Notes: generated from the letters alone by a model not told the origin. A stretch of 64,000 nt of DNA from an uncultured Gemmatimonadales bacterium (GCA_963779755.1 CAVZZO010000003.1:1746633-1810632); one strand, 5' to 3'; positions 7,444 through 60,854 are shown, counted from the first letter of the stretch. Made by a program: numbers and translations.

Positions 7444-7889
7444 TGACCGACACCTCCAGGAAACCGCGAGTCAGCGCCGAGGTACCGCGCGACCAGTCCG
7501 AGGCAGCCCGGGCCAGCTTCGAGCGGTGCTGCGCGTCGCCCGATTTCATCCCGACCTTCTATCACCTCTTCTTCACCGCGTGCCCCGAGGCAAAGGCACG
7601 GTTCGAAGCGACGGATTTCTTCCGCCAGCATCAGCTGCTGCGCCACGCCCTGCGGCTGCTGCTGCTCTACCCCAACCGCCCCGAAGCGGAAGGCCACGAC
7701 CTGCTCCGGCGGGTCGCCGAGCGGCACAGCCGCCGCGACCTGGATATCCCACCGGAGCTCTACCCGCCCTTCGTGGACAGCCTGATCCGGGCCGTGGCGC
7801 GGTACGATCCGGAGTGCAACGAGGGTATCGAGGCAGCCTGGCGGGCAACCATCCGCGGTGGGGTGGAGTACATGAAATCGCGGTACTAG
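7443..7889 (+). CDS. single-domain globin-like protein
   Basis: 148 aa. ATG 7443 overlaps the upstream stop (TGATG). Globin landmarks are TFYHLFFTACPEAKARF, FFRQHQ and the proximal-His context VAERHSRRDL. Confidence 0.6.
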   Translation: MTDTSRKPRVSAEVPRDQSEAARASFERCCASPDFIPTFYHLFFTACPEAKARFEATDFFRQHQLLRHALRLLLLYPNRPEAEGHDLLRRVAERHSRRDLDIPPELYPPFVDSLIRAVARYDPECNEGIEAAWRATIRGGVEYMKSRY

Positions 7890-9169
7890 TCCGCGCTCCT
7901 CAGTTCCTGCAATCGCTCCTCCAGGAACCGGCGCTCCGGTTCCTGTGCCGCAAGATCCAGGGCCCGCTGGAACGCGGCGGCCGCTTCGTTCCTGCGACCC
8001 AGCCGGCGGAGCAGCTCTCCCCGGGCGGAGTGGGCCAGATGATAGGCGCCGAGCTCCCCCCGGTCCAGGATGCCGTCAATGAGCCCGAGCCCCGCTCCTG
8101 GCCCGTCGCGCATGGCGATGGCCACCGCCCGGTTGAGCTCGACCACCGGCGTGGGCTCCACCCGGAGCAGCACATCGTACAGACCGGCGATCTGCGGCCA
8201 GTCGGTAGCATCCGGTGTCGCGGCCTCCGCGTGCAGCGCCGCGATCGCCGCCTGCAAGGCATAGGGCCCCGCCCGTCCCGACCGCAGCGCCCGCTCGACC
8301 AGCGACGTACCTTCGGCAATCTGCTCCCGGCTCCAGAGGGTGCGGTCCTGGTCTTCCAGAAGCACGATGGTGCCGTCGCCGCTCGTGCGCGCCGGTCTCC
8401 GGGAATCGTGCAGCAGCATGAGCGCCAGGAGACCCAGGGTCTCCGTGTCGGGCAGCAATTCGACCATCTCCCGCCCCAGCCGGATCGCCTCCACCGCAAG
8501 GTCGGTTCGCGTCACCGCATCTCCTGCGGTGGCGGCGTAGCCCTCGTTGAAGACGAGATAGATCACCTGGAGGACCGCGTCGAGTCGCTCCGGCAGTTCG
8601 GCCCGCGAGGGGACCTCATAAGGAATGCCCGCATCACGAATCTTGGCCTTGGCCCGGACGATCCGCTGGGCGATGGCCGGCGTCCGGCTGAGATAGGCCC
8701 GGGCGATTTCCTCGGTCCGGAGCCCGCAGACCTCCCGGAGCGTGAGCGCGACTCGCGCCTCGGGCGACAGGGCCGGATGGCAGCAGGTGAAGATGAGGCG
8801 GAGCTGGTCGTCCCGCACCGCCTCATCGTCCACCTCCGGCGGCGGCCCGGCTTCGCTACCCAGGCGATCGGCGATCGCCCCCCGGGCGGCATCGAACCGC
8901 GCCGCCCGTCGCAACCGGTCGATCGCACGGAACCGCCCGGCGGACACCAGCCAGGCGCGGGGGTGGGCCGGCACGCCCTCGGCCGGCCACCGCTCCACCG
9001 CGGCGGCAAAGGCTTCCGCGAGCGCCTCTTCGGCCAGATCAAAATCGCCGAGCAGGCGGATGAGGGTCGCCAGGATCCGCCGGGACTCGGACCGGTAGAG
9101 CGCACCGATCCGCTCGGTCAGGTCACTCCCGGGACACCGGCCCGGGCCGCGAAGGGAGACAGACGGCAC
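7886..9169 (-). CDS. ECF sigma factor with C-terminal TPR-like extension (ECF42-type architecture)
   Basis: 427 aa, GTG start. Sigma-70 region 2 and region 4 motifs (LAEEALAEAFAAAVERWP; LTLREVCGLRTEEIARAYLSRTPAIAQRIVRAK) plus an extension of ~230 aa. A YciI/DGPF gene lies 2 nt upstream. Confidence 0.85.
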   Translation of the reverse strand: MPSVSLRGPGRCPGSDLTERIGALYRSESRRILATLIRLLGDFDLAEEALAEAFAAAVERWPAEGVPAHPRAWLVSAGRFRAIDRLRRAARFDAARGAIADRLGSEAGPPPEVDDEAVRDDQLRLIFTCCHPALSPEARVALTLREVCGLRTEEIARAYLSRTPAIAQRIVRAKAKIRDAGIPYEVPSRAELPERLDAVLQVIYLVFNEGYAATAGDAVTRTDLAVEAIRLGREMVELLPDTETLGLLALMLLHDSRRPARTSGDGTIVLLEDQDRTLWSREQIAEGTSLVERALRSGRAGPYALQAAIAALHAEAATPDATDWPQIAGLYDVLLRVEPTPVVELNRAVAIAMRDGPGAGLGLIDGILDRGELGAYHLAHSARGELLRRLGRRNEAAAAFQRALDLAAQEPERRFLEERLQELRSAD

Positions 9170-9171
9170 GG

Positions 9172-9528
9172 CTACTCCACGCTGAACTCCCGGATCGGCC
9201 GCACCTCGACACTCCCGAAGCGGGCGGACGGGATGCGCGACGCGACCTGGATGGCATCGTTCAGGTCCCGCGCCTCGATCAAGTAGAAACCGCCGAGCTG
9301 CTCCCGGGTCTCCGCGTAGGGACCGTCAGTGGTGGTCGCCTTCCCGTTTCGCACCCGGATGGTGGTCGCCGTCTGGACCGGCTGGAGGGCCTCACCACCC
9401 AGATGGTGGCCGCTCTTCATGATGTCCTTCGTGTAGGCCACGTACTCCTGGTGTATCGCCTCCCGGTCGGGCCCGGACATTCCGTTGATCGTCGCTTCGT
9501 TGTCATAGATCAGGCACAGGTATTTCAT
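9172..9528 (-). CDS. YciI/DGPF-family protein
   Basis: ATG 9528 preceded by GGAGG. MKYLCLIYDNE...TTDGPYAETREQLGGFYLIEA is typical of the YCII family. Confidence 0.8.
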   Translation of the reverse strand: MKYLCLIYDNEATINGMSGPDREAIHQEYVAYTKDIMKSGHHLGGEALQPVQTATTIRVRNGKATTTDGPYAETREQLGGFYLIEARDLNDAIQVASRIPSARFGSVEVRPIREFSVE

Positions 9529-9572: not shown

Positions 9573-9599
9573 GTCGACTGGCGAGCCACCATTTCGACA
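9573..9599 (-). promoter_or_regulatory. candidate ECF-type promoter TGTCGA-N16-TCGAC upstream of the YciI-sigma operon
   Basis: Minus-strand TGTCGA (9599-9594), a 16-nt spacer, then TCGAC (9577-9573). It lies 44 nt upstream of ATG 9528. Confidence 0.6.
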
Positions 9600-9693
9600 C
9601 ACCGGCTCCAGGAATTCCCGCCAGCCTGGAACGGCTCCGATACTGCAATGGGCTAGAGCGTTCCCCTGATTCCCGGTTCCCGATTCCTGATCC

Positions 9694-10188
9694 CTATCCA
9701 CCCCACCCCTCATCCGCGGTCGGACCGTACATCGACGGCACCGGTATATCCAGCAGCCGCAGATACATGCCGAGCTGGGCCCGGTGGTGCACCAGGTGGC
9801 TGATGTGGTTGCGCACGATGACGGCTCGCGGCGCCGAGAAGAGCACCTTGTCACCATGCCTGAGCGACCAGGTCACGCCGTAATCGCCGTCCGCCGTCGA
9901 GGCGATCGCCTCCCTGGCTTCCCGTACGTTCTGGTCGAACCCGGCCAGCAGCGTCTCCGTCTCCTCCATGCTGTACCCGGCCGCCTTCGCCAGATCGAGC
10001 GAGGTCTCCTTCAGCGCGTTGGCGATCCAGCCCGGCATCCAGCTGACCAGCTGCGCCAGGTGGGCCAGGCAGAACGACTTGGAGTGCGGCTTCCACTCTC
10101 CCTTGTCGCTGGGCACCCGTTCCAGCACCCGGCGGGTGGTGGCCATTTCCTGGTCGAATTCGGGGAGGAGGGTCTGGGAGAAGGGCAT
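9694..10188 (-). CDS. DinB-family protein
   Basis: 164 aa from ATG 10188, with GGAGG upstream. It is the C-terminal part of a long spurious ORF. A paralogue lies at 16601-17095 (HLVHHRAQLGMYLRLLDIPVPSMYGP). Confidence 0.8.
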   Translation of the reverse strand: MPFSQTLLPEFDQEMATTRRVLERVPSDKGEWKPHSKSFCLAHLAQLVSWMPGWIANALKETSLDLAKAAGYSMEETETLLAGFDQNVREAREAIASTADGDYGVTWSLRHGDKVLFSAPRAVIVRNHISHLVHHRAQLGMYLRLLDIPVPSMYGPTADEGWGG

Positions 10189-10204
10189 GGAGCCTCCATT
10201 CAAA

Positions 10205-10350
10205 GGCGGTATGGCGGTATGAGGCGGTACGGCGGTACGGCGGTACGGCGGTACGGCGGTACGGCGGTACGGCGGTACGGCGGTACGGCGGTACGGCGGT
10301 ACGGCGGTACGGCGGTACGGCGGTACGGCGGTACGGCGGTACGGCGGTAA
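10205..10350. repeat. 8-bp microsatellite (GGCGGTAC)n, 18 units
   Basis: 15 perfect GGCGGTAC units (10223-10342), two GGCGGTAT variants (10205-10220) and one GGCGGTAA (10343-10350). The array starts 17 nt upstream of the DinB start codon. Confidence 0.95.
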
Positions 10351-10428
10351 ATGAGTACAGATCGGGGCATACCGGGGCAAGGTACCCCGGTTCTGGTCCC
10401 TGATTCCTGACTCCTGATCCCTGCGGCA

Positions 10429-10455
10429 TGTCGATTTCCGCCCTCCCGGTTCGAC
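10429..10455 (+). promoter_or_regulatory. candidate ECF-type promoter TGTCGA-N16-TCGAC upstream of the BNR-MoaD operon
   Basis: TGTCGA 10429-10434, a 16-nt spacer, TCGAC 10451-10455. It lies 36 nt upstream of ATG 10492. Confidence 0.55.
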
Positions 10456-10491
10456 GATATATTGAGACCCCCCAACCCCGAGGAGCGTACC

Positions 10492-11607
10492 ATGGCCGGA
10501 GTCCGGGTACTGGTCGGCACGCGCAAAGGCGCGTTCATCCTGACCTCCGACGCGAAACGTGCAAAGTGGAACATCAGCGGGCCGGAATTCGCCGGCTGGG
10601 AGCTGTACCACCTCAAGGGCTCGCCGGCCGACCCCGACCGGATCTACGCCTCCCAATCGAGCGGCTGGTTCGGCCAGACGATGCAGCGATCCTGCGACGG
10701 GGGGAAAACCTGGGAAACGGTGGGCAACAAGTTCGTCTACGACGGGGTGCCCGGCACCCACCAGTGGTACGACGGCACCGCGCATCCCTGGGAGTTCAAG
10801 CGGGTCTGGCACCTGGAGCCTTCGCTCACCGATCCGGACACCGTCTACGCCGGGATCGAGGACGCGGCCCTGTTCAAGTCCACCGATGGCGGCCAGAACT
10901 GGGAGGAGGTCTCCGGCCTCCGGAAGCACAGCACCGGCTCGGCCTGGTCGCCGGGTGCGGGGGGCATGTGCCTGCATACCATCATCCTCGATCCGGTGAA
11001 CCCCGGGCGGATCTTTACCGCCATCAGCGCGGCGGGTGCCTTTCGCTCGGACGACGGAGGCGACACCTGGAAACCCATTACCAGAGGACTGGTTTCCAGT
11101 TTTCTGCCGAACCCCACCGCCGAGGTAGGCCATTGCGTGCACCGGATCGCGCAGCATCCCTCGCGGCCCGACACGCTGTTCATGCAGAAGCACTGGGACG
11201 TCATGCGCAGCGATGACGCGGGCGACAACTGGCACGAGGTGAGCGGCAACCTGCCGACGGACTTCGGCTTTGCCATCGATGTGCACGCCCACGAGCCGGA
11301 GACCATCTACGTGGTCCCCATCAAGAGCGACGCCGAGCACTTCCCGCTGGAGGGCAAGCTCCAGGTGTTCCGGAGCCGGAGCGGCGGCAACGAATGGGAG
11401 CCGCTCACCCGGGGCCTGCCCCAGCGTAACTGCTACGTCAACGTGCTGCGCGATGCCATGGCGGTAGACCGGCTGGACGACTGCGGCATCTATTTCGGCA
11501 CCACCGGCGGGCAGGTGTACGCCTCGGCCGATTCGGGCGACAGCTGGACGCCGATCGCCGAGCACCTGCCGCCGGTCTTGTCGGTCGAGGTTCAGACACT
11601 GCAATGA
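10492..11607 (+). CDS. BNR/Asp-box repeat beta-propeller protein (sialidase-like fold), no signal peptide
   Basis: ATG 10492 after GAGGAG. Six Asp-box-like motifs: [54 protein letters not shown]. Confidence 0.8.
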
Positions 11608-11900
11608 TCCACGTGGTTCTGCCGGAGCCGCTCCGCAACCTGGCGCGGATCGAGAGCGAAGTCACCGTCGAGGCCGACGGTCCGGTTACCCAGCACACGG
11701 TGCTCTCCGCGCTGGAAGCGCGCTACCCCGCCCTGCGCGGCACCATGCGCGACCAGGTCACCAGGAAGCGCCGGGCCTTTCTCCGCTTCTTCGCCTGCGG
11801 CCAGGACCTCTCGCACGAGGATCCGGACGCGCCGCTGCCGGAGGCGGTGGCCAGGGGCGAGGAGCCCTATCTGGTCGTGGGGGCCACGGCCGGAGGCTAG
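11604..11900 (+). CDS. MoaD/ThiS-family ubiquitin-like beta-grasp protein ending in Gly-Gly
   Basis: 98 aa. ATGA overlap with the BNR gene. The C-terminus ...[10 protein letters not shown] is typical of sulfur-carrier/Ubl proteins. Confidence 0.75.
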
Positions 11901-11923
11901 CCCGGAAGAACGGAAACATGAAG

Positions 11924-11961
11924 AAAGGACTGAGAGAGGGCGCTTCTCTCTCAGTCCTTTT
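11924..11961 (+). terminator. intrinsic-terminator-like hairpin
   Basis: Perfect 15-bp stem AAAGGACTGAGAGAG / CTCTCTCAGTCCTTT with a 7-nt loop and a T-rich tail. Confidence 0.7.
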
Positions 11962-12039
11962 GCCTTCTCTCTCCCTTGCTATACCGGTGCCGCCCCCCGA
12001 GATTTCGGTTTCTCCCCACATCCCCTAGAGGTCGGCAGG

Positions 12040-14988
12040 ATGGAAGCCGCAATGCGCACCTGTCCCTCCTGTAGCTCCTCGTTGCCCGACGAGGCGCAAT
12101 TCTGTATGAAGTGCGGCTTCGCCACACCCACCGATCCCGGCGTCCCGCCGCGGACCCAGGCAACGGGCGCCTTCGAGGTCGGGCGGGTGAAACGCGCGCT
12201 GGGCGACCCATACCGGGTGGACCGGATTCTGGGCGAAGGGGGAATGGCCACGGTCTACCTGGCCGAAGACCTCAAGCACCGGCGCAAGGTGGCGGTGAAG
12301 GTCATGCGTCCCGAACTGGCCGCCACCCTGGGCGCCGACCGGTTCCTTCGTGAAGTCGAAATCGCCGCCCAGCTGAGCCATCCCCACATCCTGGCGGTGT
12401 ACGATTCGGGCGAGGCCGAGGGCGTGCTCTACTACGTGATGCCCTACGTGGAGGAGGGCAGTCTGCGCGAGCGGCTGGAGCGCGAGGGCCAGCTGCCGGT
12501 AAAGGAAGCGCTCCGGCTGGCCCGGGAGGTCGCCGAGGCGCTGGCCTATGCCCAGGCGCGCGGCATCATCCATCGCGACATCAAGCCGGGCAACATCCTG
12601 CTGGGCGCCGGCCACGCCCAGATCGCGGACTTCGGCATCGCGCGGGCCCTCGACAGCGCCGGGGAAGCGATCACCCGGACGGGGCTCGCGGTGGGAACGC
12701 CGCAATACATGGCGCCGGAGCAGGCCATGGGCGACCGGGACGTGGATGGCCGCGCGGACGTCTATGCCCTGGGTGCGGTGCTCTACGAGATGCTGGCCGG
12801 CGAAGCGCCCTATACCGGTCCTACCGCCCGCGCCATCATGACCCGCAGCATGACCGAAAGGCCCCGCCCCCTCTCCAGCGCCCGGATGGGCCTGCCGCCC
12901 ACGGTGGACTCCACCGTTACCCGGGCACTCGCCCGCAACCCGGTGGACCGCTATCCCACGGCGGCCGCCCTGGCCGAAGCGCTGGAGAACGCGCAGGATA
13001 CCAGCCAGAGCGGCGCGATGCAGGCCGCGGCCGGGGCGGGGCCGTCGCCGCTGGCGGTGTGGGGCCTTTTCGGCGCCGGCTCGGTGGCCATGCTGGCGAT
13101 AGTCTACAGTCTCACCCGGCGGTGGAACCTGCCGGTCTGGACACTCGGGCTCGCGGTGCTCCTCCTGGCCGTCGGCGCCGGCGTGCTGGTGCTCACGGGG
13201 AAGATCGAGCGCCGCCGGCGGGCGGGCGCCGGCACCGGCGGAATCACCGGCCTCTTCACCTGGCGCAACGCCACGCTGGGCGGCGTGGGCGCGCTGGTCC
13301 TGTGGGCCGTCATGGCCAGCGTGATGGCCGTCCGCGCACCGGCCGGCGCCGCGGGAGCCGGGGGGACGCGCGTGGCGGTGCTCCCGTTCGAGAACCAGGG
13401 GCCGGCGGCGGATGCCTACTTCGCCGACGGGATCTCCGACGAAGTCCGGGGCAAGCTGGCCCAGATCAACGGGCTCATGGTCATCGCCTCGACCAGCGCG
13501 GGCCAGTACCGGTCCACCACCAAGAGCCCCCAGGAGATCGCGCGCGAGCTGGGAGTGAACTATCTCCTGGTAGGGAAGGTGCGCTGGGCCGACTCGGCGG
13601 GCGGACACCGCCGGGTGCAGGTGGTGCCGGAGCTGATTGATGGACGGACGGGGGCGATGACCTGGCAGCAGTCGTTCGATAACGACCTGACCGACGTGTT
13701 CCAGGTCCAGTCGGACATCGCCACCCAGGTGGCCGGCGCGCTGGGCGCCCGGCTCGGCACCCAGGAGAAGAACGAACTGACCAGGCGGCCTACGCAGAAC
13801 GTGGCGGCCTACGATCTCTATCTGAAGGCCAAGGCGCTCACCGGCCGCGATCCGGCGACGCAGCGCCTGGCCGGGTCTTACCTGGAACAAGCGGTGGCGC
13901 TGGATTCGAATTTCACCGACGCCTGGGCCCTGCTGTCCACCGCGATGACGCTTACCTATACCAATGGAGGGCGGGACCCGCTCGCCTCGAAGCGCGCCCG
14001 CGAGGCAATGCAGCGGGCGCTGGTATTGGATCCGCGGTCGGTGGCCGCCAATCTGGCCGCGGCGCGATACTACCGCCTGGTCGCCAGCGACCCTGCCCGA
14101 GCCGACAGCCAGATTGCCGTCGCGCTCGAGGTCGCGCCCAATGATGCCGACGTACTCAGCACCGCGGCCGGATCGGATCTGACCGCGCTCCGCTACGATG
14201 CCGGGCTGGCCAAGCTGGAGCGGGCACGCCAGCTCGATCCGCGGTCGGAGCAGACCCTGACGGCTCTCCTCCCGGCCTATGTCTCGATGCGCCGCTTCGC
14301 CGAGGCGCTCACGGCGGGAGAGACGGCGCTATCGTTGTCGCCCGGCAACGTCAACACCATCGAGTGGATGGCGATTGCCCATGTGGCGCAAGGTGATCTG
14401 TCGGAGGCCCGGCAGGTGATCAGGGATGCGCTCGGTCGCGGGGTGACGGCACCGGAGCTGGCCGCCTACTTCGGGGGATACCAGGAGCTCTCCTGGGTGC
14501 TGGAGCTGCCACAGCGGCAACTCCTCTTCCGGCTGACCCCCGCCGCCTTCGACAACGACCGCGGCTGGTGGGGCCAGACCATGGCCACGGCCTATTTCCA
14601 GCAGGGTAATCGGGCGATGGCGCGCGCCTACGCCGATTCCGGCCTGGCTGCCACCCGGGCGCAGTCGGCGGCGAATCCGCGCGACGACCAGAATCACGTG
14701 CTCTATGGCCTGCTGCTGGCCTACCTCGGCCGCCGGGGCGAGGCACTGGCTCAGGCCGATACCGCGATGGCGCTGCTCACCTCCACCACGGTGCAGCCGC
14801 AGTACACCCGGCTCCAGGTGGTGCGCATCCACCTGGCGCTGGGCAATACGGACGCCGCCCTGGACGAGCTCCAGAAGCTGCTCAACAGCCACTACTACAT
14901 CACGCCGGCCTGGCTCCGGATCGATCCGACCTTCGCGTCGCTGCGCGACAATCCCCGGTTCAAGAAGCTGGCGCAGGGAAATAACTGA
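12040..14988 (+). CDS. Ser/Thr protein kinase with N-terminal zinc ribbon, TM region, TolB-N-like domain and TPR repeats
   Basis: 982 aa. CPSCSSSLPDEAQFCMKCG, kinase motifs (HRDIKPGNILL, DFGIARA), VAVLPFENQG...FADGISDEV, then a long TPR-like C-terminus ending IDPTFASLRDNPRFKKL. Confidence 0.85.
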   Translation: MEAAMRTCPSCSSSLPDEAQFCMKCGFATPTDPGVPPRTQATGAFEVGRVKRALGDPYRVDRILGEGGMATVYLAEDLKHRRKVAVKVMRPELAATLGADRFLREVEIAAQLSHPHILAVYDSGEAEGVLYYVMPYVEEGSLRERLEREGQLPVKEALRLAREVAEALAYAQARGIIHRDIKPGNILLGAGHAQIADFGIARALDSAGEAITRTGLAVGTPQYMAPEQAMGDRDVDGRADVYALGAVLYEMLAGEAPYTGPTARAIMTRSMTERPRPLSSARMGLPPTVDSTVTRALARNPVDRYPTAAALAEALENAQDTSQSGAMQAAAGAGPSPLAVWGLFGAGSVAMLAIVYSLTRRWNLPVWTLGLAVLLLAVGAGVLVLTGKIERRRRAGAGTGGITGLFTWRNATLGGVGALVLWAVMASVMAVRAPAGAAGAGGTRVAVLPFENQGPAADAYFADGISDEVRGKLAQINGLMVIASTSAGQYRSTTKSPQEIARELGVNYLLVGKVRWADSAGGHRRVQVVPELIDGRTGAMTWQQSFDNDLTDVFQVQSDIATQVAGALGARLGTQEKNELTRRPTQNVAAYDLYLKAKALTGRDPATQRLAGSYLEQAVALDSNFTDAWALLSTAMTLTYTNGGRDPLASKRAREAMQRALVLDPRSVAANLAAARYYRLVASDPARADSQIAVALEVAPNDADVLSTAAGSDLTALRYDAGLAKLERARQLDPRSEQTLTALLPAYVSMRRFAEALTAGETALSLSPGNVNTIEWMAIAHVAQGDLSEARQVIRDALGRGVTAPELAAYFGGYQELSWVLELPQRQLLFRLTPAAFDNDRGWWGQTMATAYFQQGNRAMARAYADSGLAATRAQSAANPRDDQNHVLYGLLLAYLGRRGEALAQADTAMALLTSTTVQPQYTRLQVVRIHLALGNTDAALDELQKLLNSHYYITPAWLRIDPTFASLRDNPRFKKLAQGNN

Positions 14989-15057
14989 GGACTGAGTAAG
15001 GCGGCAGGACGGCAGCCCGCGGCGCGCCGCGTGAGCCGCGGAGGGGCCATCGAGCCC

Positions 15058-15126
15058 CGCTGCATCCCGACCTTCGCGCCGCTCAGGGGGCCTCCGCGGT
15101 TCGAGAAGCTGGCGAGACAGGACTGA
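15058..15126 (+). pseudogene. relic of a kinase C-terminus
   Basis: It translates to RCIPTFAPLRGPPRFEKLARQD*. Compare the C-terminus of the 37209 kinase, RIDPTFAPLRGNPRFERLVGGK. Confidence 0.5.
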
Positions 15127-15170
15127 GAGCAAAGGGCTGGGAGAAAAGCGCTTTTCTCTCAGTCCTTTTG
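15119..15170. terminator. bidirectional terminator-like palindrome between convergent genes
   Basis: Inner palindrome GAGAAAAGC/GCTTTTCTC and outer GGACTGAGAG/CTCTCAGTCC. It shares a ~25-nt tail (TCTCTCAGTCCTTTTG.CCTT.CTC) with the hairpin at 11924. Confidence 0.6.
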
Positions 15171-16439
15171 TCCTTTCTCCCTATTCCGGCATTCCGTGGC
15201 GCGCTGGAGCAGGAGCCGCCGCTCCCGCTCATTTTTCGTCAGCTTCGCCGCCCGCTCGAATTCCTCACTCGCCTCGACATTCCGCCCCAGCTTCTGCAGC
15301 AGGTCGCCGCGCACGCTGGGGAGCAGGTGATAGTTCCGTAGCGATTTCTGCTTCGTGAGCGGTTCCACCAGCGCGAGCGCGGCCTCCGGGCCTTCGGCCA
15401 TACTCACCGCCACCGCGCGATTGAGCTCGACCACGGGGGAGGGCATGAGCTGCGCCAGGGCGCCGTAGAGCATCGCGATTCTGGCCCAGTCCGTTTCCTG
15501 CGCCGAGCGCGCCCGCGCGTGGCAGGCGGCGATGGCCGCCTGGAGTGCGTAGGGGCCGGCAGCGCCGCCCAGCGCGTCCACCCGCTCCAGCGCCGCCAGA
15601 CCACGCTGGATGAGCAGGCGGTCCCAGCGGCCCCGGTCCTGATCCAGCAGCAGTACCGGCTCGCCGTCGGGGCCCACTCGCGCTCGGAGACGGGAGGCCT
15701 GAATCTCCATCAGGGCGATGAGCCCGTGTACCTCTGGCTCCTCCGGCGCCAGGGTCGCCAGGATGCGCCCCAGCCGCATCGCATCTTCGCAGAGGCCGGG
15801 CCGGACCCAGTCGTCACCCGCGGTCGCGGCATACCCCTCGTTGAAGATGAGATAGATCACCTCGAGCACCGAGGCGAGCCGCTCACTCAGGTCGTCCCCG
15901 CGCGGCACCTCGAAGGGCACCTTCGCGTCCGCCAGCGTCTTCTTGGCCCGGACGATCCGCTGCTGCAGGGTGGGAACGGGAATCAGAAACGCGCGCGCGA
16001 TCTCCTCGGTGGTGAGGCCACCCACCAGCCGCAGTGTCAGGGCGACCCGGGCTTCGGCGGAGAGCAGCGGGTGACAGGCGGTAAAGATCAGGCTCAGGAG
16101 ATCGTCACCGATGGCGTCGTCCAGCGCCGCCGCCGTCTCGACCTCCCGCTGCTGCTCCTCCTGCAGCTCGCCGCCCAGCTGCTGGTGCTTGCGATCCAGC
16201 ATCTGGTGGCGCCGGAGCTGGTCGATCCCCCGGCGCTTGGCCGCGGTCATGAGCCAGGCACCGGGGTTGTCGGGAATGCCCGATGCCGGCCACTGCTCCA
16301 GCGCAGCCAGCAGCGCGTCCTGGGCCAGATCCTCGGCCTGGCCCACGTCGCCTACCATGCGCGCCAGCCGGGCAATGATCTTCGCCGATTCCATGCGCCA
16401 GACGGCGTCGATGGTGGCGTGGATATGCGCGACCGTCAT
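15159..16439 (-). CDS. ECF sigma factor with C-terminal TPR-like extension (second ECF42-type paralogue)
   Basis: 426 aa, clearly paralogous to 7886-9169 (LTLRLVGGLTTEEIARAFLIPVPTLQQRIVRAK, AGPYALQAAIAACHA). Confidence 0.85.
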   Translation of the reverse strand: MTVAHIHATIDAVWRMESAKIIARLARMVGDVGQAEDLAQDALLAALEQWPASGIPDNPGAWLMTAAKRRGIDQLRRHQMLDRKHQQLGGELQEEQQREVETAAALDDAIGDDLLSLIFTACHPLLSAEARVALTLRLVGGLTTEEIARAFLIPVPTLQQRIVRAKKTLADAKVPFEVPRGDDLSERLASVLEVIYLIFNEGYAATAGDDWVRPGLCEDAMRLGRILATLAPEEPEVHGLIALMEIQASRLRARVGPDGEPVLLLDQDRGRWDRLLIQRGLAALERVDALGGAAGPYALQAAIAACHARARSAQETDWARIAMLYGALAQLMPSPVVELNRAVAVSMAEGPEAALALVEPLTKQKSLRNYHLLPSVRGDLLQKLGRNVEASEEFERAAKLTKNERERRLLLQRATECRNREKGQKD

Positions 16440-16494
16440 AGGTCACGATTAGACCATGGCGGCGCTCGCAACGCAAGGGAGGGACAGGCGGTAC

Positions 16495-16592
16495 GGCACA
16501 AGGGACAAGGGACAGGGGACCCGATTAAGGACTACGCAGCCTATCCCTGTCCCGATCCCCGCTGCGACCCCTTGTCCCTTGTCCCCTGTGCC
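16495..16592 (-). promoter_or_regulatory. long imperfect hairpin built from GGGACA(A/G)G words, between DinB and the sigma gene
   Basis: Arms 16495-16519 and 16568-16592 pair at about 23 of 25 positions by hand. The loop is ~48 nt. Confidence 0.55.
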
Positions 16593-16600
16593 TGTCGGCC

Positions 16601-17095
16601 TTACATCCCCGCCTCATCCGCACTCGGACCGTAGACCGACGGAAGGGGGACATTCAGCAGCCGCAGGTAAACGGTGAGCTGCCCGCGATGGTGGTACCAG
16701 TGGTTGAACAGGATGGTGCGGAGGACACCGCTCCGGGGGAGGGCCATGACCTCCCTCTCGCCGTCCACCATGCGCCAGGGCAACGCCAGGTCGGAGTCCT
16801 TCATGGCCCCGAGCAGCGTCCGGGCCTTCTCCACGCTCTGGTCGTAGGTGCTCATGAGCTCGTCCGCGCCGCCCGGGCTGGGCCGCGGGATCCGCGTCTT
16901 GACGTCGAACGTGGGCTTCCCCGCCATTTCGCTGATGGCGCCCGGCAGCATGGCCACATGCATGGCAAGCTGCCCCAGGGTGAACGATTTCTCGTGGGGG
17001 CGCCAGTCGTAGCGGTCCGGCGGTACCCGCTCCAGCACGCGCCGGGTCGCCTTCGCTTCCTGGTCCAGCTCCTGCATCAGCTCGGCGATAGTCAC
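16601..17095 (-). CDS. DinB-family protein
   Basis: 164 aa, a paralogue of 9694-10188 (FNHWYHHRGQLTVYLRLLNVPLPSVYGP). Confidence 0.8.
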   Translation of the reverse strand: MTIAELMQELDQEAKATRRVLERVPPDRYDWRPHEKSFTLGQLAMHVAMLPGAISEMAGKPTFDVKTRIPRPSPGGADELMSTYDQSVEKARTLLGAMKDSDLALPWRMVDGEREVMALPRSGVLRTILFNHWYHHRGQLTVYLRLLNVPLPSVYGPSADEAGM

Positions 17096-17158
17096 TGTGT
17101 GGCCTTTCGTAGCGGACGTTTGGACCCGGTCAAGAGGGTCGAGGGACAGCGATCGTGG

Positions 17159-17572
17159 TCATCCGGGTGCCCGCTCATACAACAACATCCACGAGGTCCC
17201 GAACCGGTCGCGGAGCATCGCGAAGCGGTGGGCGAAGAACGTCTCCGCCATGGGCATGAAGATCTCGCCCCCTTCCCGCAGGAGCGCATAGACCCGCTCC
17301 GCCTCCTCCACGCTGGACAGCGAGAGGCTGAGATAGGCGCTGCGCATCGGCTGGAAACGGTCCGGGGGGATATCCGCTCCGAACAGACTCGTGCCTCCCA
17401 GTTCGATCCGGGCGTGCAGCACTGCGTTCCGCCATTCCGGCGGGACCTTGTCTGCCTCCGGTTGCTCGGCATGGGTCGCCAGCATGGTGATGCGACCGCC
17501 CAGGCGCTCGGCGTAGAACTCGAACGCCTCCCGGCAGTTGCCGCCGTAGTTGAGATAGGTATTGAGCTGCAT
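17159..17572 (-). CDS. VOC/glyoxalase-fold protein (PhnB/YjdN-like)
   Basis: 137 aa. MQLNTYLNYGGNCREAFEFY... and ...FAHRFAMLRDRFGTSWML are typical of this family. Confidence 0.7.
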   Translation of the reverse strand: MQLNTYLNYGGNCREAFEFYAERLGGRITMLATHAEQPEADKVPPEWRNAVLHARIELGGTSLFGADIPPDRFQPMRSAYLSLSLSSVEEAERVYALLREGGEIFMPMAETFFAHRFAMLRDRFGTSWMLLYERAPG

Positions 17573-17665
17573 CGTATTCCCCGATACTGGTCTTCGGTCA
17601 TTGAAGGCGCGACACGGGCGGCGGCCCTCGTCTCAATATGTCGCGGAGCTGCCCGTACCGGCGAC

Positions 17666-18109
17666 TCAGAAGGTAGAACCCGTGGGCACCCTGAGATCGA
17701 GATTCAGTGGCAGGGTGATGCCGGACCAGGAGCGCCGGCCGCGAATCACCACCATCAGCAGGACACCCACCACGAAAGGCGTGGCGGCCATGGCGGGCCC
17801 CATCCGCAGAATTGTCGTCACGACGGCGCCGATCATGATGATGACGAGTCCGGCCGCCGCCAGCGGAGTAAGGCCCCGGCGAACGCGGAAGATACCGGGG
17901 AGAATGAGGCCCAGGGCCCCCAGGCCCTCACACACGGCGATGAAGCGCATGAACCCCGCGGAGAGGCCTGACTGCTGGACCAGCGCCTGGGCAGGCATGG
18001 TCAGCTTGGCGAAGGAGGCGAAGAGAAAGAGGGCGGCGAGCAGGCCCTGGATCGTCCAGAGCAACACGTTGCCGATCTTGCGGTTACGGCTCCGGGTGGG
18101 GGAAGACAT
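17666..18109 (-). CDS. DoxX-family membrane protein
   Basis: Start at ATG 18109, with GAGGAG upstream. Four hydrophobic segments. The FLFASFAKL... and FIAVCEGLGALGLILP pattern is DoxX-like. Confidence 0.7.
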   Translation of the reverse strand: MSSPTRSRNRKIGNVLLWTIQGLLAALFLFASFAKLTMPAQALVQQSGLSAGFMRFIAVCEGLGALGLILPGIFRVRRGLTPLAAAGLVIIMIGAVVTTILRMGPAMAATPFVVGVLLMVVIRGRRSWSGITLPLNLDLRVPTGSTF

Positions 18110-18171
18110 GGTCGGGCTCCTCTCGGTTCGGGTTCTGGTGCCGGGAGCCTGTCTCCCGGCTTCACAGAAGC

Positions 18172-18198
18172 GTCGACCGGGGAGGGGCGGGATCGACA
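18172..18198 (-). promoter_or_regulatory. candidate ECF-type promoter TGTCGA-N16-TCGAC upstream of DoxX
   Basis: Minus-strand TGTCGA (18198-18193), a 16-nt spacer, TCGAC (18176-18172). It is followed by GTGAAGCCGGGA and a leader hairpin, as at 18780. Confidence 0.55.
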
Positions 18199-18207
18199 TC
18201 AAGCAGA

Positions 18208-18284
18208 CCTCGACCCTCTCGACACTCTCGACCCCCTCGACCTCTTCAGTGGTCGAGAGGGTCGAGGGGGTCAAGAGAGTCGAG
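18208..18284 (-). promoter_or_regulatory. long imperfect hairpin built from CTCGACC-type words
   Basis: Arms 18208-18242 and 18251-18284 with an 8-nt loop. About 29 of 34 positions pair by hand. Confidence 0.5.
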
Positions 18285-18305
18285 AAAACCCTGGGCGCCG
18301 TCGAC

Positions 18306-18716
18306 TTACTTCAACCGCTCCCGCAGCTTTGCCTCCCGCTCCTGCAGCTCGGGCGTAAACTCCTCGCCGAAATCCTCGAGTTCGAAGAAGGGGCGGATTT
18401 CCACCGTCTCCCCCTCTTCGAACGGCGCCCGCTTGAGCCATTCCACCGCTTCATCCACGGACTTGACCTGCCAGATCCAGAATCCGGCGACCAGCTCTTT
18501 GGTCTCCGCGAAGGGGCCGTCGATCACCCGCGGCTTCCCCGAACCGAACCGGACTCGTTTGCCCTTCGAGCTGGGTTGCAGACCGTCGCCCGCCAGCATG
18601 ATGCCGGCCTGGACCAGCTTCTCGTTGAACGTCCCCATCTTCTCCAGCAGTTCCCGCTTCGGCATTGCGCCGGCTTCGTATTCCTTGTTGGCCTTGACCA
18701 GCACGATGACTCGCAT
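18306..18716 (-). CDS. YciI/DGPF-family protein
   Basis: Start at ATG 18716, with AAGGAG upstream. MRVIVLVKANKEYE...VIDGPFAETKELVAGFWIWQV. Confidence 0.8.
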   Translation of the reverse strand: MRVIVLVKANKEYEAGAMPKRELLEKMGTFNEKLVQAGIMLAGDGLQPSSKGKRVRFGSGKPRVIDGPFAETKELVAGFWIWQVKSVDEAVEWLKRAPFEEGETVEIRPFFELEDFGEEFTPELQEREAKLRERLK

Positions 18717-18779
18717 GATGCGGTCTCCTTGCAGCAGGTCGCTTTCCCGGCCGGGATATCTTCCCGGCTTCACTCCTGC

Positions 18780-18806
18780 GTCGATCGGGCGGGAGCGGAA
18801 TCGACA
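18780..18806 (-). promoter_or_regulatory. candidate ECF-type promoter TGTCGA-N16-TCGAC upstream of the second YciI gene
   Basis: Minus-strand TGTCGA (18806-18801), a 16-nt spacer, TCGAC (18784-18780). It lies 63 nt upstream of ATG 18716. Confidence 0.6.
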
Positions 18807-19159
18807 TCCCCGCCGGGGAGCGGACACCGTCTTGTCCGGTCTCTTCATCCCGGGTTCCCGCTCTCTTCACGTTCCCGCCGGTAAGTTTAGCCCTGTCGTT
18901 CCGTCGCCGTGCACGGCGGCGGGCGGCCGGTGGGGGAGTTTCGCAGAACCCCACCCGCATCAGGCCGGCGTGCTGATGCGCCCTATCGGATCCAGGATGC
19001 GACCTGGCGACCGACAGCGCCCGCAACGGAACCCCGTGTACCGTAAGGTCAACGCGGGAACCGGTGCCTCCAAAGCCCACCGACGGATCCTGTACGGGGT
19101 CCGGCGAAGCGGAGGAGAGAAGAACGGAGCCCAAACCTCCGACCCGGATGACCGATGCG

Positions 19160-19984: not shown

Positions 19985-20710
19985 TTACATCTTCTTCGGC
20001 GGCAACAGCACCGCGTCAATCACGTGAATGATGCCGTTACTGGCCGGCACGTCGGCGGCGATCACGTTGGCGGACTTGTCGCCCACATGGACCTTGTCAC
20101 CCGCCAGGTGAATCCGCAGATCACTCCCCTGCACCGTCTTGAGCGTCACGTACCCGTCCTTGTCTGCCCGGGTCTTGAGGTCGGCGGCGGTGAGGCGGCC
20201 GGCCACTACATGATAGGTCAGCACTGAAGTCAGCGCGGCCTTGTCCTGGAGCAGCCCGGCCAGAGTGCCTTCCGGCAGCTTCGCAAAGGCGGAGTCGGTC
20301 GGCGCAAAAACGGTGAACGGTCCGGCGCTGTTAAGCGTCTCCACCAGGCCGGCCGCGGTCACCGCGGTCACCAGCGTATTGAACTGGCCCGCCCCCACCG
20401 CGGTCTCTACGATCGTTCCGGGCGGCGCCATGTCCGGCATCTGCGCCTGCGCCGGCGTCACTGCAACCAGCGCCAGCAGGGCCGCGGCTGCCATCGCTGG
20501 GGCGCGTCTCATCCAGCGCTGCTGAATCGCCTTCCACTGGAACACCTGCCAGACCGCCGAAACACCCACCAGCAGATACACGACCCGGCTCAGGGCGCTG
20601 CCGGTGCCGAAGAGCGCGCCCACCACATCAGGCCCGCCCGCCCCGATCAGCCCCCAGTTCAGACCGCCAATCACTAACAGCACGGCGGCCAGGATATCGA
20701 GCTTCTTCAT
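19985..20710 (-). CDS. DUF378-like membrane domain fused in frame to a fasciclin (FAS1) domain
   Basis: The N-terminus [23 protein letters not shown] is DUF378-like. An internal [24 protein letters not shown] looks like a signal peptide. A FAS1 body follows ([26 protein letters not shown]). Confidence 0.75.
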
Positions 20711-46702: not shown

Positions 46703-47308
46703 TTAGTGCCTCGCTGCAATCCTCGCCGTCCTGCTACCCACTGTTGGTCTGCCCGCATCCTTCTCCAATGGTCGGTGTGTTGCCCTCCCGCCCGTTGTCC
46801 CCGCCGCGCCCGCGGTCAGGACATCGAGGTTCCGTGCAGGGAGGAAGAGAGCATCCAGCCGCCGGTAGCTTGCCTCCATGCCATGTTCCATGCCGATCGC
46901 CAGTATGGCGGCCCGGGCGCCGGCATCCGGCAGGGTCATCCGCAGGGTCATCAGGGTCCCGGAAGCATCGGGCTCGAATCGCGTTTCGATGTGATTATCC
47001 GGCGTAGGATCGGGCAGGAACATCCGCTCCACGTGCACGATCTTCCGGTGGGGCTCCAGCTCGAGATACTCCCCCGTGAGGTAGAACTCCTGGCCCTCAT
47101 CGTTCCTCCATTCGTAGCGGATCGTGCCGCCGGGCCGGGCCTCACTGATACAGATCGGCATGGTCCAGCCATCCGGGCCAAGACACCACTGCCGGACGAA
47201 CTCGGGATCGGTGTGGGCCTGGTACACCGCCTGGGGCGAGGCGGCAAAGCGCCTGGTCATCACCATGTGGGTTTCGCCTTCGGTCTTCAGCGTCAGACCG
47301 CCCATCAT
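46703..47308 (-). CDS. AHSA1/SRPBCC-family protein (copy 1, with a ~50-aa C-terminal extension relative to copy 2)
   Basis: Start at MMGGLTLKTEGETHMV. Highly similar to 49089-49556 (RMFLPDPTPDNHIETRFEPD). Confidence 0.75.
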   Translation of the reverse strand: MMGGLTLKTEGETHMVMTRRFAASPQAVYQAHTDPEFVRQWCLGPDGWTMPICISEARPGGTIRYEWRNDEGQEFYLTGEYLELEPHRKIVHVERMFLPDPTPDNHIETRFEPDASGTLMTLRMTLPDAGARAAILAIGMEHGMEASYRRLDALFLPARNLDVLTAGAAGTTGGRATHRPLEKDAGRPTVGSRTARIAARH

Positions 47309-47430
47309 CGGCCTCGCTTTCCTGTGGCTGGCTGTTCCGGGGCCGCGAGAACCCGGTCCAGCCGGTTGTAGTCCTGCTCCAGGGCGTTGCGCAGCAGGGC
47401 CGGCCACTGGCTCATGGTCCAGGGGTCCAC
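47305..47430 (-). pseudogene. 3' remnant of an ArsR-family gene
   Basis: It translates to ...SQWPALLRNALEQDYNRLDRVLAAPEQPATGKRGR*, matching the last ~38 codons of ArsR 49553-49903. The N-terminal HTH part is absent. Confidence 0.7.
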
Positions 47431-47497
47431 TTCCTCCCGATCCGGGCACGTCTGGTCTCCCGGTGCGGGGGATTGTCGACCCTGCTCTCTCCTTTAT

Positions 47498-47524
47498 GTC
47501 GAATCAGGCAACGGGGGATCGACA
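47498..47524 (-). promoter_or_regulatory. candidate ECF-type promoter TGTCGA-N16-TCGAC upstream of the arsR remnant and AHSA1 copy 1
   Basis: Minus-strand TGTCGA (47524-47519), a 16-nt spacer, TCGAC (47502-47498). Confidence 0.5.
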
Positions 47525-48663: not shown

Positions 48664-49053
48664 CTACTTCAGACGTTCCAGCCGCCCCTTTCGCCGGATC
48701 AGGTTCCGGTAGTCCCATTGAACGTCTCGGGCCTCGGCCAGCCAGCGGCCCAGCTGCCCGGTGTCCACTTCTTCGACCCTGGTGTATCGCGCCTCGGCGG
48801 CCTTGAAGCTCCCTTCCGTTGCCAGCCCTTTCTCCTTGAAGGACTGACCGCTCCAGAAGAGCAGGCGTATGCAGTTCTTGAGTTTGGCGTATCCGACGAT
48901 GGGGTTCCCGTCCAGGAACCAGACCGGATGCGCGTGCCAGATCCGGTTCTCCGCCTCGGGCAGTCCGCGATCGATCTGCTCCGCCAGCAGTTCACAGACG
49001 GCCCGGGCGGTGGGCTCCTGGGCCAGGTTGTATTTCCTGGTGTCCGGATTCAT
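48664..49053 (-). CDS. DUF1801 (YdhG-like) domain protein
   Basis: 129 aa. ...HPVWFLDGNPIVGYAKLKNCIRLLFWSG... is typical of DUF1801. Confidence 0.65.
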   Translation of the reverse strand: MNPDTRKYNLAQEPTARAVCELLAEQIDRGLPEAENRIWHAHPVWFLDGNPIVGYAKLKNCIRLLFWSGQSFKEKGLATEGSFKAAEARYTRVEEVDTGQLGRWLAEARDVQWDYRNLIRRKGRLERLK

Positions 49054-49088
49054 CGCGATGTCCTCGTGCTCGGATAGTCCGGTGCTCG

Positions 49089-49556
49089 TCAGAGCATCTT
49101 CTCCAGCCGCTGGTAACTCGCTTCCATGCCGTGCTCCATGCCGGTCTCCAGCATTGCCTTGCGTGTCCCGGCATCGGGCAGTGTCATCCGCATGGTCATG
49201 AGCGTGCCGCTGCCGTCGGGCTCGAAGCGCGTCTCGATATGGTTATCCGGCGTCGGATCGGGCAGGAACATCCGTTCGATATGGACCAGTCTGCGGTTGG
49301 CCTCCACCTCGAGATATTCCCCGGTGAGATAAAAGCCGTTGCCCTGGCCGTCCGACCACTCGTAGCGGATCTTGCCGCCGGGGCGCACCTCGTTGGTGCA
49401 GACCGGCATGGTCCAGCCTTCGGGGCCGAGCAGCCACTGCTGGAGCAGTTCGGGATCGGTGTGAGCCCGATACACCGCCTCGGGCGGCGCGGCGAAACGC
49501 CTGGTCACGATCACGTGGGTGTCGCCTTCGGTCTTTAGCGTCAGACTGGCCATCAT
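49089..49556 (-). CDS. AHSA1/SRPBCC-family protein (copy 2)
   Basis: Start at MMASLTLKTEGDTHVIV. ATGA overlap with the ArsR stop. Confidence 0.8.
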   Translation of the reverse strand: MMASLTLKTEGDTHVIVTRRFAAPPEAVYRAHTDPELLQQWLLGPEGWTMPVCTNEVRPGGKIRYEWSDGQGNGFYLTGEYLEVEANRRLVHIERMFLPDPTPDNHIETRFEPDGSGTLMTMRMTLPDAGTRKAMLETGMEHGMEASYQRLEKML

Positions 49557-49903
49557 CGGCCTCTCTTTCCCGTTGCAGGCTGTTCCAGGTTCGCGAGGAT
49601 CCGGTCCAGCCGGTTGTAGTTCTGCTCCAGGGCCTTTCTCAGCATTGCCAGCCACTGGTCCATGGCTTCAACCCCGGCCTTGGCCAGACGGCGCGGCCGC
49701 CTGTTGCCTTCCACCCGGCTCACGATCAGCCCCGCGTCTTCCAGCACCTTCAGATGCTGGGAGATGGCGGGCTGGCTCATCTCGAACGGCTGCGCCAGAT
49801 CCTTCACGGTGGCTTCCCCGCGCGCCAGACGGGCCAGGATGGCCCGGCGGGTGGGGTCGGCCAGGGCCGCAAAGGCGGCGTCGAGGTTGGGCGCGGCTTT
49901 CAT
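49553..49903 (-). CDS. ArsR/SmtB-family transcriptional regulator
   Basis: 116 aa. FAALADPTRRAILARL...VKDLAQPFEMSQPAISQHLKVLEDAGLI. Confidence 0.85.
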   Translation of the reverse strand: MKAAPNLDAAFAALADPTRRAILARLARGEATVKDLAQPFEMSQPAISQHLKVLEDAGLIVSRVEGNRRPRRLAKAGVEAMDQWLAMLRKALEQNYNRLDRILANLEQPATGKRGR

Positions 49904-60641: not shown

Positions 60642-60825
60642 AAGGCCTCCGGGGTTCCGGGTTGGCAGGAATGGGTCTCGATCGGGCGGCCTGGCGATGA
60701 TCCCAATCGAGGCGCGGCACCTCGGTAGTCTAGCCCCTCTCCCTGAAACCGATCCACCAAGGGTTCCCTGAGCAGGAAAGGCCCGGGTATCCCCGGTGCC
60801 CTGCGTCGCTCTGACAACCATCCGG

Positions 60826-60854
60826 TTGACAAATCTTCCCGGCCATGGTAACGT
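60826..60854 (+). promoter_or_regulatory. sigma-70-like promoter giving a leaderless arsR mRNA
   Basis: TTGACA 60826-60831, 17-nt spacer, TAACGT 60849-60854, then 7 nt to ATG 60862. Confidence 0.55.

Follow-up and report, generated by a model that had tools for sequence, protein, structure and literature searches.

We analysed a 64,000-nucleotide stretch of DNA from an uncultured Gemmatimonadales bacterium (GCA_963779755.1, CAVZZO010000003.1:1746633-1810632), hereafter the window, which encodes two paralogous extracytoplasmic function (ECF) sigma factors, sigma1 and sigma2, and carries five sites of the form TGTCGA-N16-TCGAC. These five sites are very probably promoters read by RNA polymerase with a sigma factor of the ECF42 group, which is among the largest groups of ECF sigma factors (>10,000 members). 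ECF42 proteins carry a C-terminal TPR extension of ~200 amino acids that is needed for activity, and they operate without an anti-sigma factor (PMC8999054, PMC6180224); members have been studied in S. venezuelae, P. putida and S. meliloti (PMC8999054, PMC6180224), and ECF42_SMc01150 is listed in PMC6426705. As we read the locus, region 4 of the sigma factor would contact the -35 element TGTCGA(T) and region 2 the -10 element (T)CGAC, located 17 nt downstream, and the transcript would begin with the purine found 9 nt past the -10 box, G in each of the five cases.

Five copies of the motif in the window

The initial annotation of the window had reported TGTCGA-N16-TCGAC at five places, all intergenic and in the sense orientation. 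Exact search returned those same five loci, with the coordinates and orientations as reported, and six matches in total, one of the sites matching on both strands. The chance expectation is 0.05 matches per window, in line with the earlier estimate of far less than one, and dinucleotide-shuffled sequences never contained more than one match. Relaxing the search to spacers of 15-17 nt or to a -10 box of CGWC yielded no extra site in the window. With genes called from third-codon-position G+C content (GC3) and Pfam matches (the G+C content of the window is 68%), all five sites lie between genes and point towards the genes that the annotation had named. Site 1 (9573..9599, minus strand) precedes yciI-1 and the sigma1 gene; site 2 (10429..10455, plus strand) precedes the genes for a BNR repeat protein and a MoaD/ThiS-like protein; site 3 (18172..18198, minus strand) precedes the DoxX_2, VOC and DinB2 genes, and possibly serves sigma2 as well; site 4 (18780..18806, minus strand) precedes yciI-2; and site 5 (47498..47524, minus strand) precedes an arsR remnant and AHSA1 copy 1. 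An ATG follows on the same strand 44, 36, 62, 63 and 82 nt downstream of sites 1 to 5, respectively, and a GGAGG-type ribosome-binding site is found at four of these five start codons.

The two sigma factors

Sigma1 (7886..9169, minus strand; the true start may be ~20 codons inside this open reading frame, ORF) matches Sigma70_r2, Sigma70_r4_2, DUF6596 and TPR models, and sigma2 (15159..16439, minus strand) matches the first three of these. The two proteins are 50% identical over 410 residues; the closest relatives of sigma1 are 76% identical to it, with 94-96% of the query covered. For several proteins of the window the nearest relatives with a name come from Gemmatimonadales metagenome-assembled genomes, which makes a source within Gemmatimonadota probable. 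Both have the ECF core, with regions 2 and 4 only and no match to region 3 or region 1. PDB sequence matches are confined to ECF sigma cores (residues ~14-175), and NCBIfam gives generic ECF matches only, below the cut-offs. The C-terminal extensions are ~245 and ~255 amino acids long, and DUF6596 is matched with E = 1e-37 in both proteins. The annotation had credited both with a TPR-like C-terminal extension of ~230 amino acids: the long extension is indeed present in both, but a TPR match (TPR_2, residues 378-407) is found in sigma1 only, and no TPR model matches sigma2. As judged by domain distribution and by the r2-r4-DUF6596 architecture of an S. venezuelae sigma factor, DUF6596 would correspond to the ECF42 extension; we found no published statement in the literature that equates the two.

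Beside either sigma gene we detected no zinc-binding anti-sigma domain and no transmembrane anti-sigma gene; the neighbours encode YCII, DinB, VOC, DoxX and BNR proteins and a Ser/Thr kinase. Linkage to YciI/DGPF genes, which the annotation had pointed out, is clear for both: the sigma1 ORF begins 3 nt past the end of yciI-1, yciI-2 belongs to the sigma2 cluster, and a YciI-2 homologue was detected by tblastn in 70 of 80 loci that encode sigma2 homologues. All five window sites combine a -35 element of the type TGTCG(A/G) with a -10 element of the type CG(A/T)C. Domain layout, YCII linkage and promoters resembling those of S. meliloti RpoE10 thus agree with the earlier assignment of both proteins to the ECF42 type.

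The motif in other genomes

Homologues of sigma2 that are 59-74% identical to it occur in many phyla. Our comparison set comprised 80 loci encoding such relatives in species-representative genomes from Acidobacteriota, Gemmatimonadota, Actinomycetota, Pseudomonadota, Myxococcota, Chloroflexota and others. The annotation had proposed the presence of the motif in related genomes as a check, and the outcome is favourable: 33 of the 80 loci contain the strict motif, with 38 copies in all as compared to 0.8 in shuffles. All 38 copies are on the strand of the sigma gene, most of them ~0.5-0.9 kb upstream of it and directly before a YCII-type ORF. Beyond the 11 bases by which they were selected, these foreign sites have the consensus TGTCGATtt...CtcGTTCGACGT-N5-TAGAGcc, and the extended consensus of the sites is GTTCGACGT-N5-TAGAG. 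Both CGAC and CGTC versions of the -10 element are found among the 80 loci, TCGTC being the -10 box of many foreign sites, proteobacterial ones included.

We built a 40-nt weight matrix from the foreign sites only and scored the window with it. At a threshold of 6 (shuffle maximum 8.9) exactly five positions are returned, namely site 4 (34.5, the best of the window), site 3 (32.6), site 2 (28.4), site 5 (21.8) and site 1 (9.9). Site 5 reads TGTCGA...TCGACA and thus matches the strict motif a second time on the plus strand, at 47497-47523; with the matrix, the minus-strand reading scores 21.8 and the plus-strand reading stays below 6, and the extended model is compatible with the minus orientation alone. 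The sole gene to the right of site 5 is on the minus strand.

Applied to the 80 loci at a threshold of 10, the matrix finds at least one match in 65 of them, with 74 of the 77 matches on the sigma strand. An ORF starts within 220 nt downstream at 71 of the 72 sites that score at least 15. At the 71 such sites where the first downstream ORF could be called, it belongs to YCII 57 times, to DUF998 6 times, to DoxX/DoxX_2 4 times, to AHSA1/Polyketide_cyc2 (SRPBCC) twice, and to RibD_C and DUF1801 once each. The connection of ECF42 to DoxX and AHSA1 genes that the annotation had drawn is therefore not special to this locus, as both recur as motif-linked genes elsewhere.

Nearly the whole gene set of the window is found in one cluster of a Bacteroidota metagenome-assembled genome (MAG; locus L173, DATJAN010000174.1, 2109-7254), with ArsR-AHSA1, an ECF42 sigma factor, three YCII genes, DUF1801, VOC and DoxX_2, and with motifs before two of the YCII genes. 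This cluster suggests a conserved pool of ECF42-associated genes across phyla.

The position of the transcription start can be predicted by comparison with S. meliloti RpoE10, whose promoters read TGTCGG-N16-TCGTC (SMc01149) and TGTCGG-N17-CGTC (SMb20475); a near-identical motif precedes the YCII gene SMc01151 (PMC6180224). The window motif differs from the RpoE10 motif at the last -35 base and at one -10 base only. The RpoE10 start site, by both methods, is the 9th nucleotide after TCGTC (PMC6180224). The corresponding nucleotide is a G at 5/5 window sites, and the foreign sites have the conserved A of TAGAG at this position. While the annotation had expected starts ~7 nt after TCGAC, the 9th nucleotide is thus the likelier position, which predicts starts at G residues 9564, 10464, 18163, 18771 and 47489 for sites 1 to 5, respectively.

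Two flavours of promoter

To compare promoters between the two sigma clades, we classed each fetched locus as sigma1-like or sigma2-like by the closer sigma factor and tabulated the base that follows CG(A/T)C. It is G at none of the 15 sites in sigma1-like loci and at 65 of the 71 sites in sigma2-like loci (Fisher p = 2.5e-12), the 15 sigma1-like sites being drawn from 9 related loci and the statistic ignoring phylogeny. After CGAC specifically, G accompanies sigma2-like sigma factors and T, C or A accompanies sigma1-like ones. By this token sites 2-4 (CGAC-G) would mainly be targets of sigma2, and sites 1 (CGAC-T) and 5 (CGAC-A) mainly targets of sigma1. Cross-talk is plausible, since the region 4 recognition helices of the two proteins are near-identical (QRIVRAK in both).

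Site 1 has a -10 flank of the sigma1-clade type, CGAC-TAGCTGGTGTCC, and the window reads ...GTCGAC-TAGCTGGTGTCC at this position. The loci that encode relatives of sigma1 (70-74% identical) come from Gemmatimonadales, Binatia, Bacteroidota and metagenomes. In three sigma1-orthologue contexts (L161/L162, L163 and L165-L170), the sigma factors of which are 73-74% identical to sigma1, the flank TAGCTGG(C/T)GTCC is kept before the YCII-sigma pair, and TGTCGAT-N16-ACGAC-TA(G/T)CT(G/A)GCGTCC is found at the loci where the 118-aa YCII-sigma pair is encoded. As the YCII-sigma loci of sigma1 orthologues carry a matching flank, the flank of site 1 is conserved among orthologues.

Weighing the promoter reading

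The narrow phylogenetic base of the clade comparison is one of several points that weigh against reading the five sites as ECF42 promoters. The score of site 1 (9.9) is hardly above noise, the shuffle maximum being 8.9, with a matrix of the sigma2 type. Sigma2 has no motif site directly upstream, a fact absent from the annotation, and a hairpin of -69 kcal/mol lies between it and site 3. RpoE10 did not raise the expression of its own YCII operon in S. meliloti (PMC6180224). The group consensus TGTCGA/CGAC is supported indirectly, by the S. meliloti data and the cross-phylum comparison presented here. Finally, given the similarity to ECF41-type promoters, another sigma factor could be reading the window sites.

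Taken to its conclusion, this last point would mean that the sites are read by another ECF sigma factor encoded outside the window, for example of the ECF41 type, and that sigma1 and sigma2 have other targets. ECF41 and ECF42 motifs do differ by few bases, the S. meliloti RpoE9 promoter being TGTCACA-N16-TCGTC (PMC6180224), and our survey of sigma genes extended over 64 kb of a contig of at least 1.8 Mb, in which stretch we found none besides sigma1 and sigma2. The TGTCGA motif, however, co-occurs with DUF6596-type sigma factors in the 65 of 80 loci, across phyla, and it is hard to see why else the base that follows the -10 box should co-vary with the clade to which the neighbouring sigma factor belongs. 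We consider an outside reader improbable.

A different possibility is that the sites are not promoters and instead serve as operators of a dimeric factor, such as an ArsR-, HxlR- or MarR-type repressor, that binds GTCGA-N16-TCGAC. Since GTCGA and TCGAC are reverse complements, each site is a perfect 5-bp inverted repeat, a property that the annotation had not mentioned, with the half-sites 21 bp, or about two helical turns, apart at all five sites; site 5 matches on both strands, and ArsR and HxlR genes are found near such clusters. The conserved flanks are nonetheless asymmetric: T precedes GTCGA in all sites, G follows TCGAC in 38/38 foreign sites, and TAGAG is found on the downstream side only. 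The strong strand bias and the proximity of ORF starts in the 80 loci likewise speak for promoters, and neither the TCGTC variants nor the mapped S. meliloti promoters are palindromic with the -35 element. As, moreover, the motif travels with the sigma gene and with no one family of regulators, we regard the operator explanation as very unlikely.

That the likeness of the sites is a mere leftover of recent local duplication or of a dispersed repeat, with no shared regulatory role, is scarcely credible: sites 3 and 4 do share ~47 nt including flanks, and the region is rich in repeats (8-mer and 9-mer arrays, long hairpins), but sites 1, 2 and 5 are alike in their -35 and -10 boxes only, with wholly different spacers, a check for extended flank homology at the other sites found none, and the same boxes with the same spacing, far from being absent from related genomes, stand beside homologous genes in distant phyla.

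The sigma1 operon and the sigma2 cluster

Under the promoter reading, sigma1 would probably be autoregulated from site 1 through the YciI-1/sigma1 operon. YciI-1 (118 aa, 9172..9528, minus strand; Pfam YCII, E = 3e-24) is the product of the first gene of this operon, and the 118-aa YCII-sigma pair is also found in loci orthologous to it.

The sigma2 cluster has a more complex layout. While in most related loci a promoter and a YCII gene directly precede the sigma gene, the order here is yciI-2, a hairpin, site 3, doxX-VOC-dinB, a second hairpin and sigma2, with a gap of 160 nt before the latter. YciI-2 (136 aa, YCII/DGPF type; 18306..18716, minus strand) follows site 4 and has the N-terminus MR(F/V)xVxVKA...EAG that is typical of the YCII genes upstream of sigma2 homologues. 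Site 3 is followed by the genes for a DoxX_2 membrane protein (17666..18109), a VOC/glyoxalase-fold protein (17159..17572; library matches to 3-dmu-9_3-mt, YjdN-like) and DinB2 of the DinB family (16601..17095), all on the minus strand. The simplest history would be that an ancestral YCII-sigma operon took up a cassette bearing a duplicated promoter, with sites 4 and 3 as the two copies of the promoter that would now drive yciI-2 and the inserted DoxX-VOC-DinB cassette upstream of sigma2.

Stable long hairpins flank the cassette on both sides: one between yciI-2 and site 3 (18200..18305, minus strand; -66 kcal/mol, z = -5.8), which is made up of the 9-mer repeats CTCGACCCT/GGTCGAGAG, and one between dinB2 and sigma2 (16470..16600, minus strand; z = -3.4). 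Neither has a U-tail, and they could be REP-like (repetitive extragenic palindromic) elements, processing sites or factor-independent terminators. The hairpin at 16470-16600 may limit read-through from site 3 into sigma2, and as sigma2 has no site of its own, its autoregulation, which depends on read-through past this hairpin, is uncertain. No weaker motif scoring at least 6 with the 40-nt matrix is present before sigma2 or dinB1. Sigma2 also lacks a Shine-Dalgarno sequence. A weak sigma-70-like pair, TTGCGT-N17-TCTAAT, is located in 16440-16480 (minus strand) and ends 8 nt before the sigma2 ATG, so that the sigma2 mRNA could be leaderless; so weak a pair falls below what the promoter scan reports, and the sigma-70 promoter scan of 15000-19100 returned no promoter and three terminator-like matches, within chance. 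Just beyond the promoter region of yciI-2, a gene at 19985-20710 (minus strand) encodes a DUF378 and Fasciclin-domain fusion protein.

Leaders and stem-loops

The annotation had noted that the DoxX and YciI-2 sites share flanks and that each is followed by a small hairpin, and both features are present as it described them. The promoter regions of sites 3 and 4 align over ~47 nt, flanks included, which fits a local promoter duplication. The site 3 leader stem-loop (18140..18160, minus strand) reads GCCGGGAG-ACAGG-CTCCCGGC, begins at +4 of the predicted transcript and has a folding energy of -18.4 kcal/mol (z = -2.3); that of site 4 (18750..18768, minus strand) reads GCCGGGA-AGATA-TCCCGGC, the whole leader having -19.8 kcal/mol (z = -1.7). 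The stem is identical at the two sites and the loop differs. From the shared GTGAAGCCGGGA and the hairpins, the annotation had proposed a conserved leader. Folding of the leader does turn out to be a tendency of the whole family, whereas the GTGAAGCC flank common to sites 3 and 4 is in part the family-wide TAGAGC start element, matched by TGAAGC of sites 3 and 4 at the predicted start, and in part the product of local promoter duplication.

Folded from the predicted starts, the leader of site 5 gives z = -3.0, and those of sites 1 and 2 do not fold in this way. For 58 foreign sites, the first 40 transcribed nucleotides have a mean z of -0.99 relative to dinucleotide shuffles, with 40% below -1.5, as compared to a mean z of -0.24 (12% below -1.5) for control segments just upstream of the motif and +0.20 (0% below -1.5) for ORF-internal segments (Mann-Whitney p = 2.5e-4 and 2e-7, respectively). 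The distance between the predicted 5' end and the start of the foreign stems is mostly 1-4 nt, and no U-run comes after them. Rfam and tRNA scans of the window returned nothing, and no known RNA family accounts for the leaders. We favour the interpretation that the leader stem-loop stabilises the 5' end of the mRNA; a DNA-level operator overlapping +1 is a possible alternative.

The BNR and MoaD/ThiS-like pair

Site 2 would bring a pair of genes of a different kind under ECF42 control. Its -10 flank is CGAC-G, and the ATG 36 nt downstream has a GAGGAG ribosome-binding site. The first gene (10492..11607, plus strand) encodes a 371-aa BNR/Sortilin-Vps10 repeat protein, as judged by its Pfam match; the second (11604..11900, plus strand), which overlaps the first by 4 nt, encodes a 98-aa protein that ends in Gly-Gly and has no Pfam match. 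Relatives of the 98-aa protein are named MoaD/ThiS family or molybdopterin synthase sulfur carrier subunit by NCBI and JGI, the C-terminal GG is invariant in 37 homologues, and a PDB profile search gave E = 0.9 to SAMP1, which is not significant.

For comparison we used 80 metagenome loci with BNR homologues 75-82% identical to that of the window. A homologue of the 98-aa protein is found in 73 of them, directly after BNR wherever coordinates are listed. In the Gemmatimonadales contigs with the nearest BNR/Ubl (ubiquitin-like) relatives, the sequence breaks off within BNR. We rejected BNR as a universal target, as a sense motif is present within 200 nt upstream in 4/72 loci and within 1.3 kb in 10/50, and YCII genes usually lie between the motifs within 1.3 kb and BNR. 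An ECF42-type sigma gene, closer to sigma1 where checked, is found within 4 kb in 11 of the 80 BNR loci; as a rough estimate, <1% of random genes have an ECF42-type sigma gene within 4 kb. A Binatia MAG has back-to-back motifs, with a YCII-sigma pair in one direction and BNR, a 107-aa gene, YCII and VOC in the other, and in an Acidobacteriaceae MAG the BNR-Ubl pair adjoins P-YCII-P-YCII-sigma, but BNR lacks a preceding motif. The link between ECF42 and the BNR-Ubl pair that the annotation had put forward thus stands in the sense that the pair is a recurrent neighbour or target, albeit in a minority of its loci. We found no E1-like or JAMM gene near the pair in two long contigs.

Immediately downstream of the BNR-Ubl pair, and flanked by the two sigma clusters, 12040-14988 (plus strand) codes for a Ser/Thr protein kinase of 982 aa that has a zinc ribbon at its N-terminus and TPR repeats at its C-terminus; homologues of this kinase are found in 4 of the 80 BNR loci. 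Phosphorylation controls some ECF groups.

The interval from dinB1 to site 2 holds an almost perfect tandem array of GGCGGTAC (10205-10349, 17.9 copies). The 8-nt unit is non-coding, and the array begins 17 nt upstream of the start codon of dinB1 (10188, minus strand); variation in its copy number could alter the spacing of the dinB1 promoter. Both intergenic regions beside dinB1, at 9650-9700 and 10380-10425, contain the short pyrimidine-rich repeats GATTCCTGA/GATCCCTG.

The arsR remnant and the AHSA1 copies

Site 5 precedes a 36-codon ORF (47305..47415, minus strand) that aligns with the C-terminus of an intact ArsR (49553-49903) and whose stop codon overlaps the start of AHSA1/SRPBCC copy 1 (46703..47308, minus strand). 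Copy 1 is 72% identical to copy 2 (49089-49556), which follows the intact arsR gene; the alignment bears out both the arsR remnant and the AHSA1 duplication that the annotation had described. Nucleotide homology of the AHSA1 copies starts at the ATG of the remnant, which argues that the promoter occupies the former place of the arsR helix-turn-helix. By replacing the 5' part of arsR, site 5 would allow the second AHSA1 copy to be expressed without the repressor.

Copy 1 extends ~47 codons past the stop codon of copy 2, its own stop codon apparently having been lost, and downstream of it, at 45.7-46.7 kb, no ORF passes the GC3-based coding filter. At 60796-61628 (plus strand) a 134-aa ORF is followed by one more AHSA1-like gene (61197-61628), the third of the window; it shares 32% identity with copy 2, and we found no ECF42-type motif upstream.

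Implications and comparison with known systems

Earlier work on ECF42 had already established the promoter type, the linkage to YCII genes and targets of VOC/SRPBCC type. To this the locus adds an extended consensus that includes the start region, a candidate single-base discriminator between clades, a tendency to form a 5' leader stem-loop, the capture of a promoter by the truncated arsR-AHSA1 copy, and the BNR-MoaD/ThiS pair as a recurrent accessory target. With two paralogous sigma factors and five clean promoters, it is a compact natural test case; the targets are small proteins of detoxification or ligand-binding type (YCII, DoxX, VOC, DinB, AHSA1) and the BNR-MoaD/ThiS pair. Going further, one may speculate that at least two ECF42 clades discriminate promoters by the base after the -10 CGAC (G versus T/C/A) and so keep the regulons of paralogues insulated, that the shared TAGAG start region and 5' stem-loop serve mRNA stability or a second control step, and that the BNR and MoaD/ThiS-like pair is a recurrent part of the regulon in soil bacteria; we put this combined picture forward as a tentative one, and rather doubtful as a whole. 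If it is true, recruitment of BNR-MoaD/ThiS could tie the ECF42 response to a ubiquitin-like or sulfur-carrier reaction. The picture of ECF42 is refined by this locus rather than changed.

The closest known systems are those of ECF42 itself: S. meliloti RpoE10/SMc01150, S. venezuelae SVEN_0747, 4377 and 7131, and P. putida ECF-10. Like these, the window sigma factors combine a sigma2/sigma4 core with a long C-terminal extension, have no adjoining anti-sigma factor and have a YCII/DGPF gene upstream; the promoters have a -35 TGTCG(A/G) and a -10 (T)CG(A/T)C 16 nt apart, and the regulons are small and of VOC/SRPBCC/YCII type. The annotation had presented the link to VOC and AHSA1-type proteins as new, but glyoxalase-like (VOC) proteins and a hydrophobic-ligand-binding protein of SRPBCC type were already reported among the genes induced by RpoE10 (PMC6180224). 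Unlike the known cases, the window has two paralogues 6 kb apart, its YCII-sigma operon is seemingly split by the DoxX-VOC-DinB cassette with its duplicated promoter, and it recruits the BNR and MoaD/ThiS pair and the arsR-truncated AHSA1 copy; its -10 element is CGAC, whereas that of rhizobial ECF42 is CGTC.

ECF41 (M. tuberculosis SigJ, S. meliloti RpoE9) is alike in its promoter, TGTCACA-N16-(T)CGTC, in its small local regulons and in regulation via a fused C-terminal domain. The ECF41 extension, however, is SnoaL/NTF2-like and inhibitory, whereas that of the window sigma factors is DUF6596 (with a TPR match in sigma1); ECF41 acts on genes of carboxymuconolactone decarboxylase type, and its -35 element is TGTCACA as compared to TGTCGA in the window. 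A third point of comparison is offered by ArsR-SRPBCC(AHSA1)-DUF1801 cassettes, of which copy 2 at 48664-49903 is an intact example. In the Bacteroidota MAG, ArsR-AHSA1 is located directly upstream of the ECF42 sigma gene, followed by the three YCII genes, DUF1801, VOC and DoxX_2. Copy 1 of the window departs from such cassettes in having lost the helix-turn-helix part of arsR, the place of which is taken by an ECF42-type promoter.

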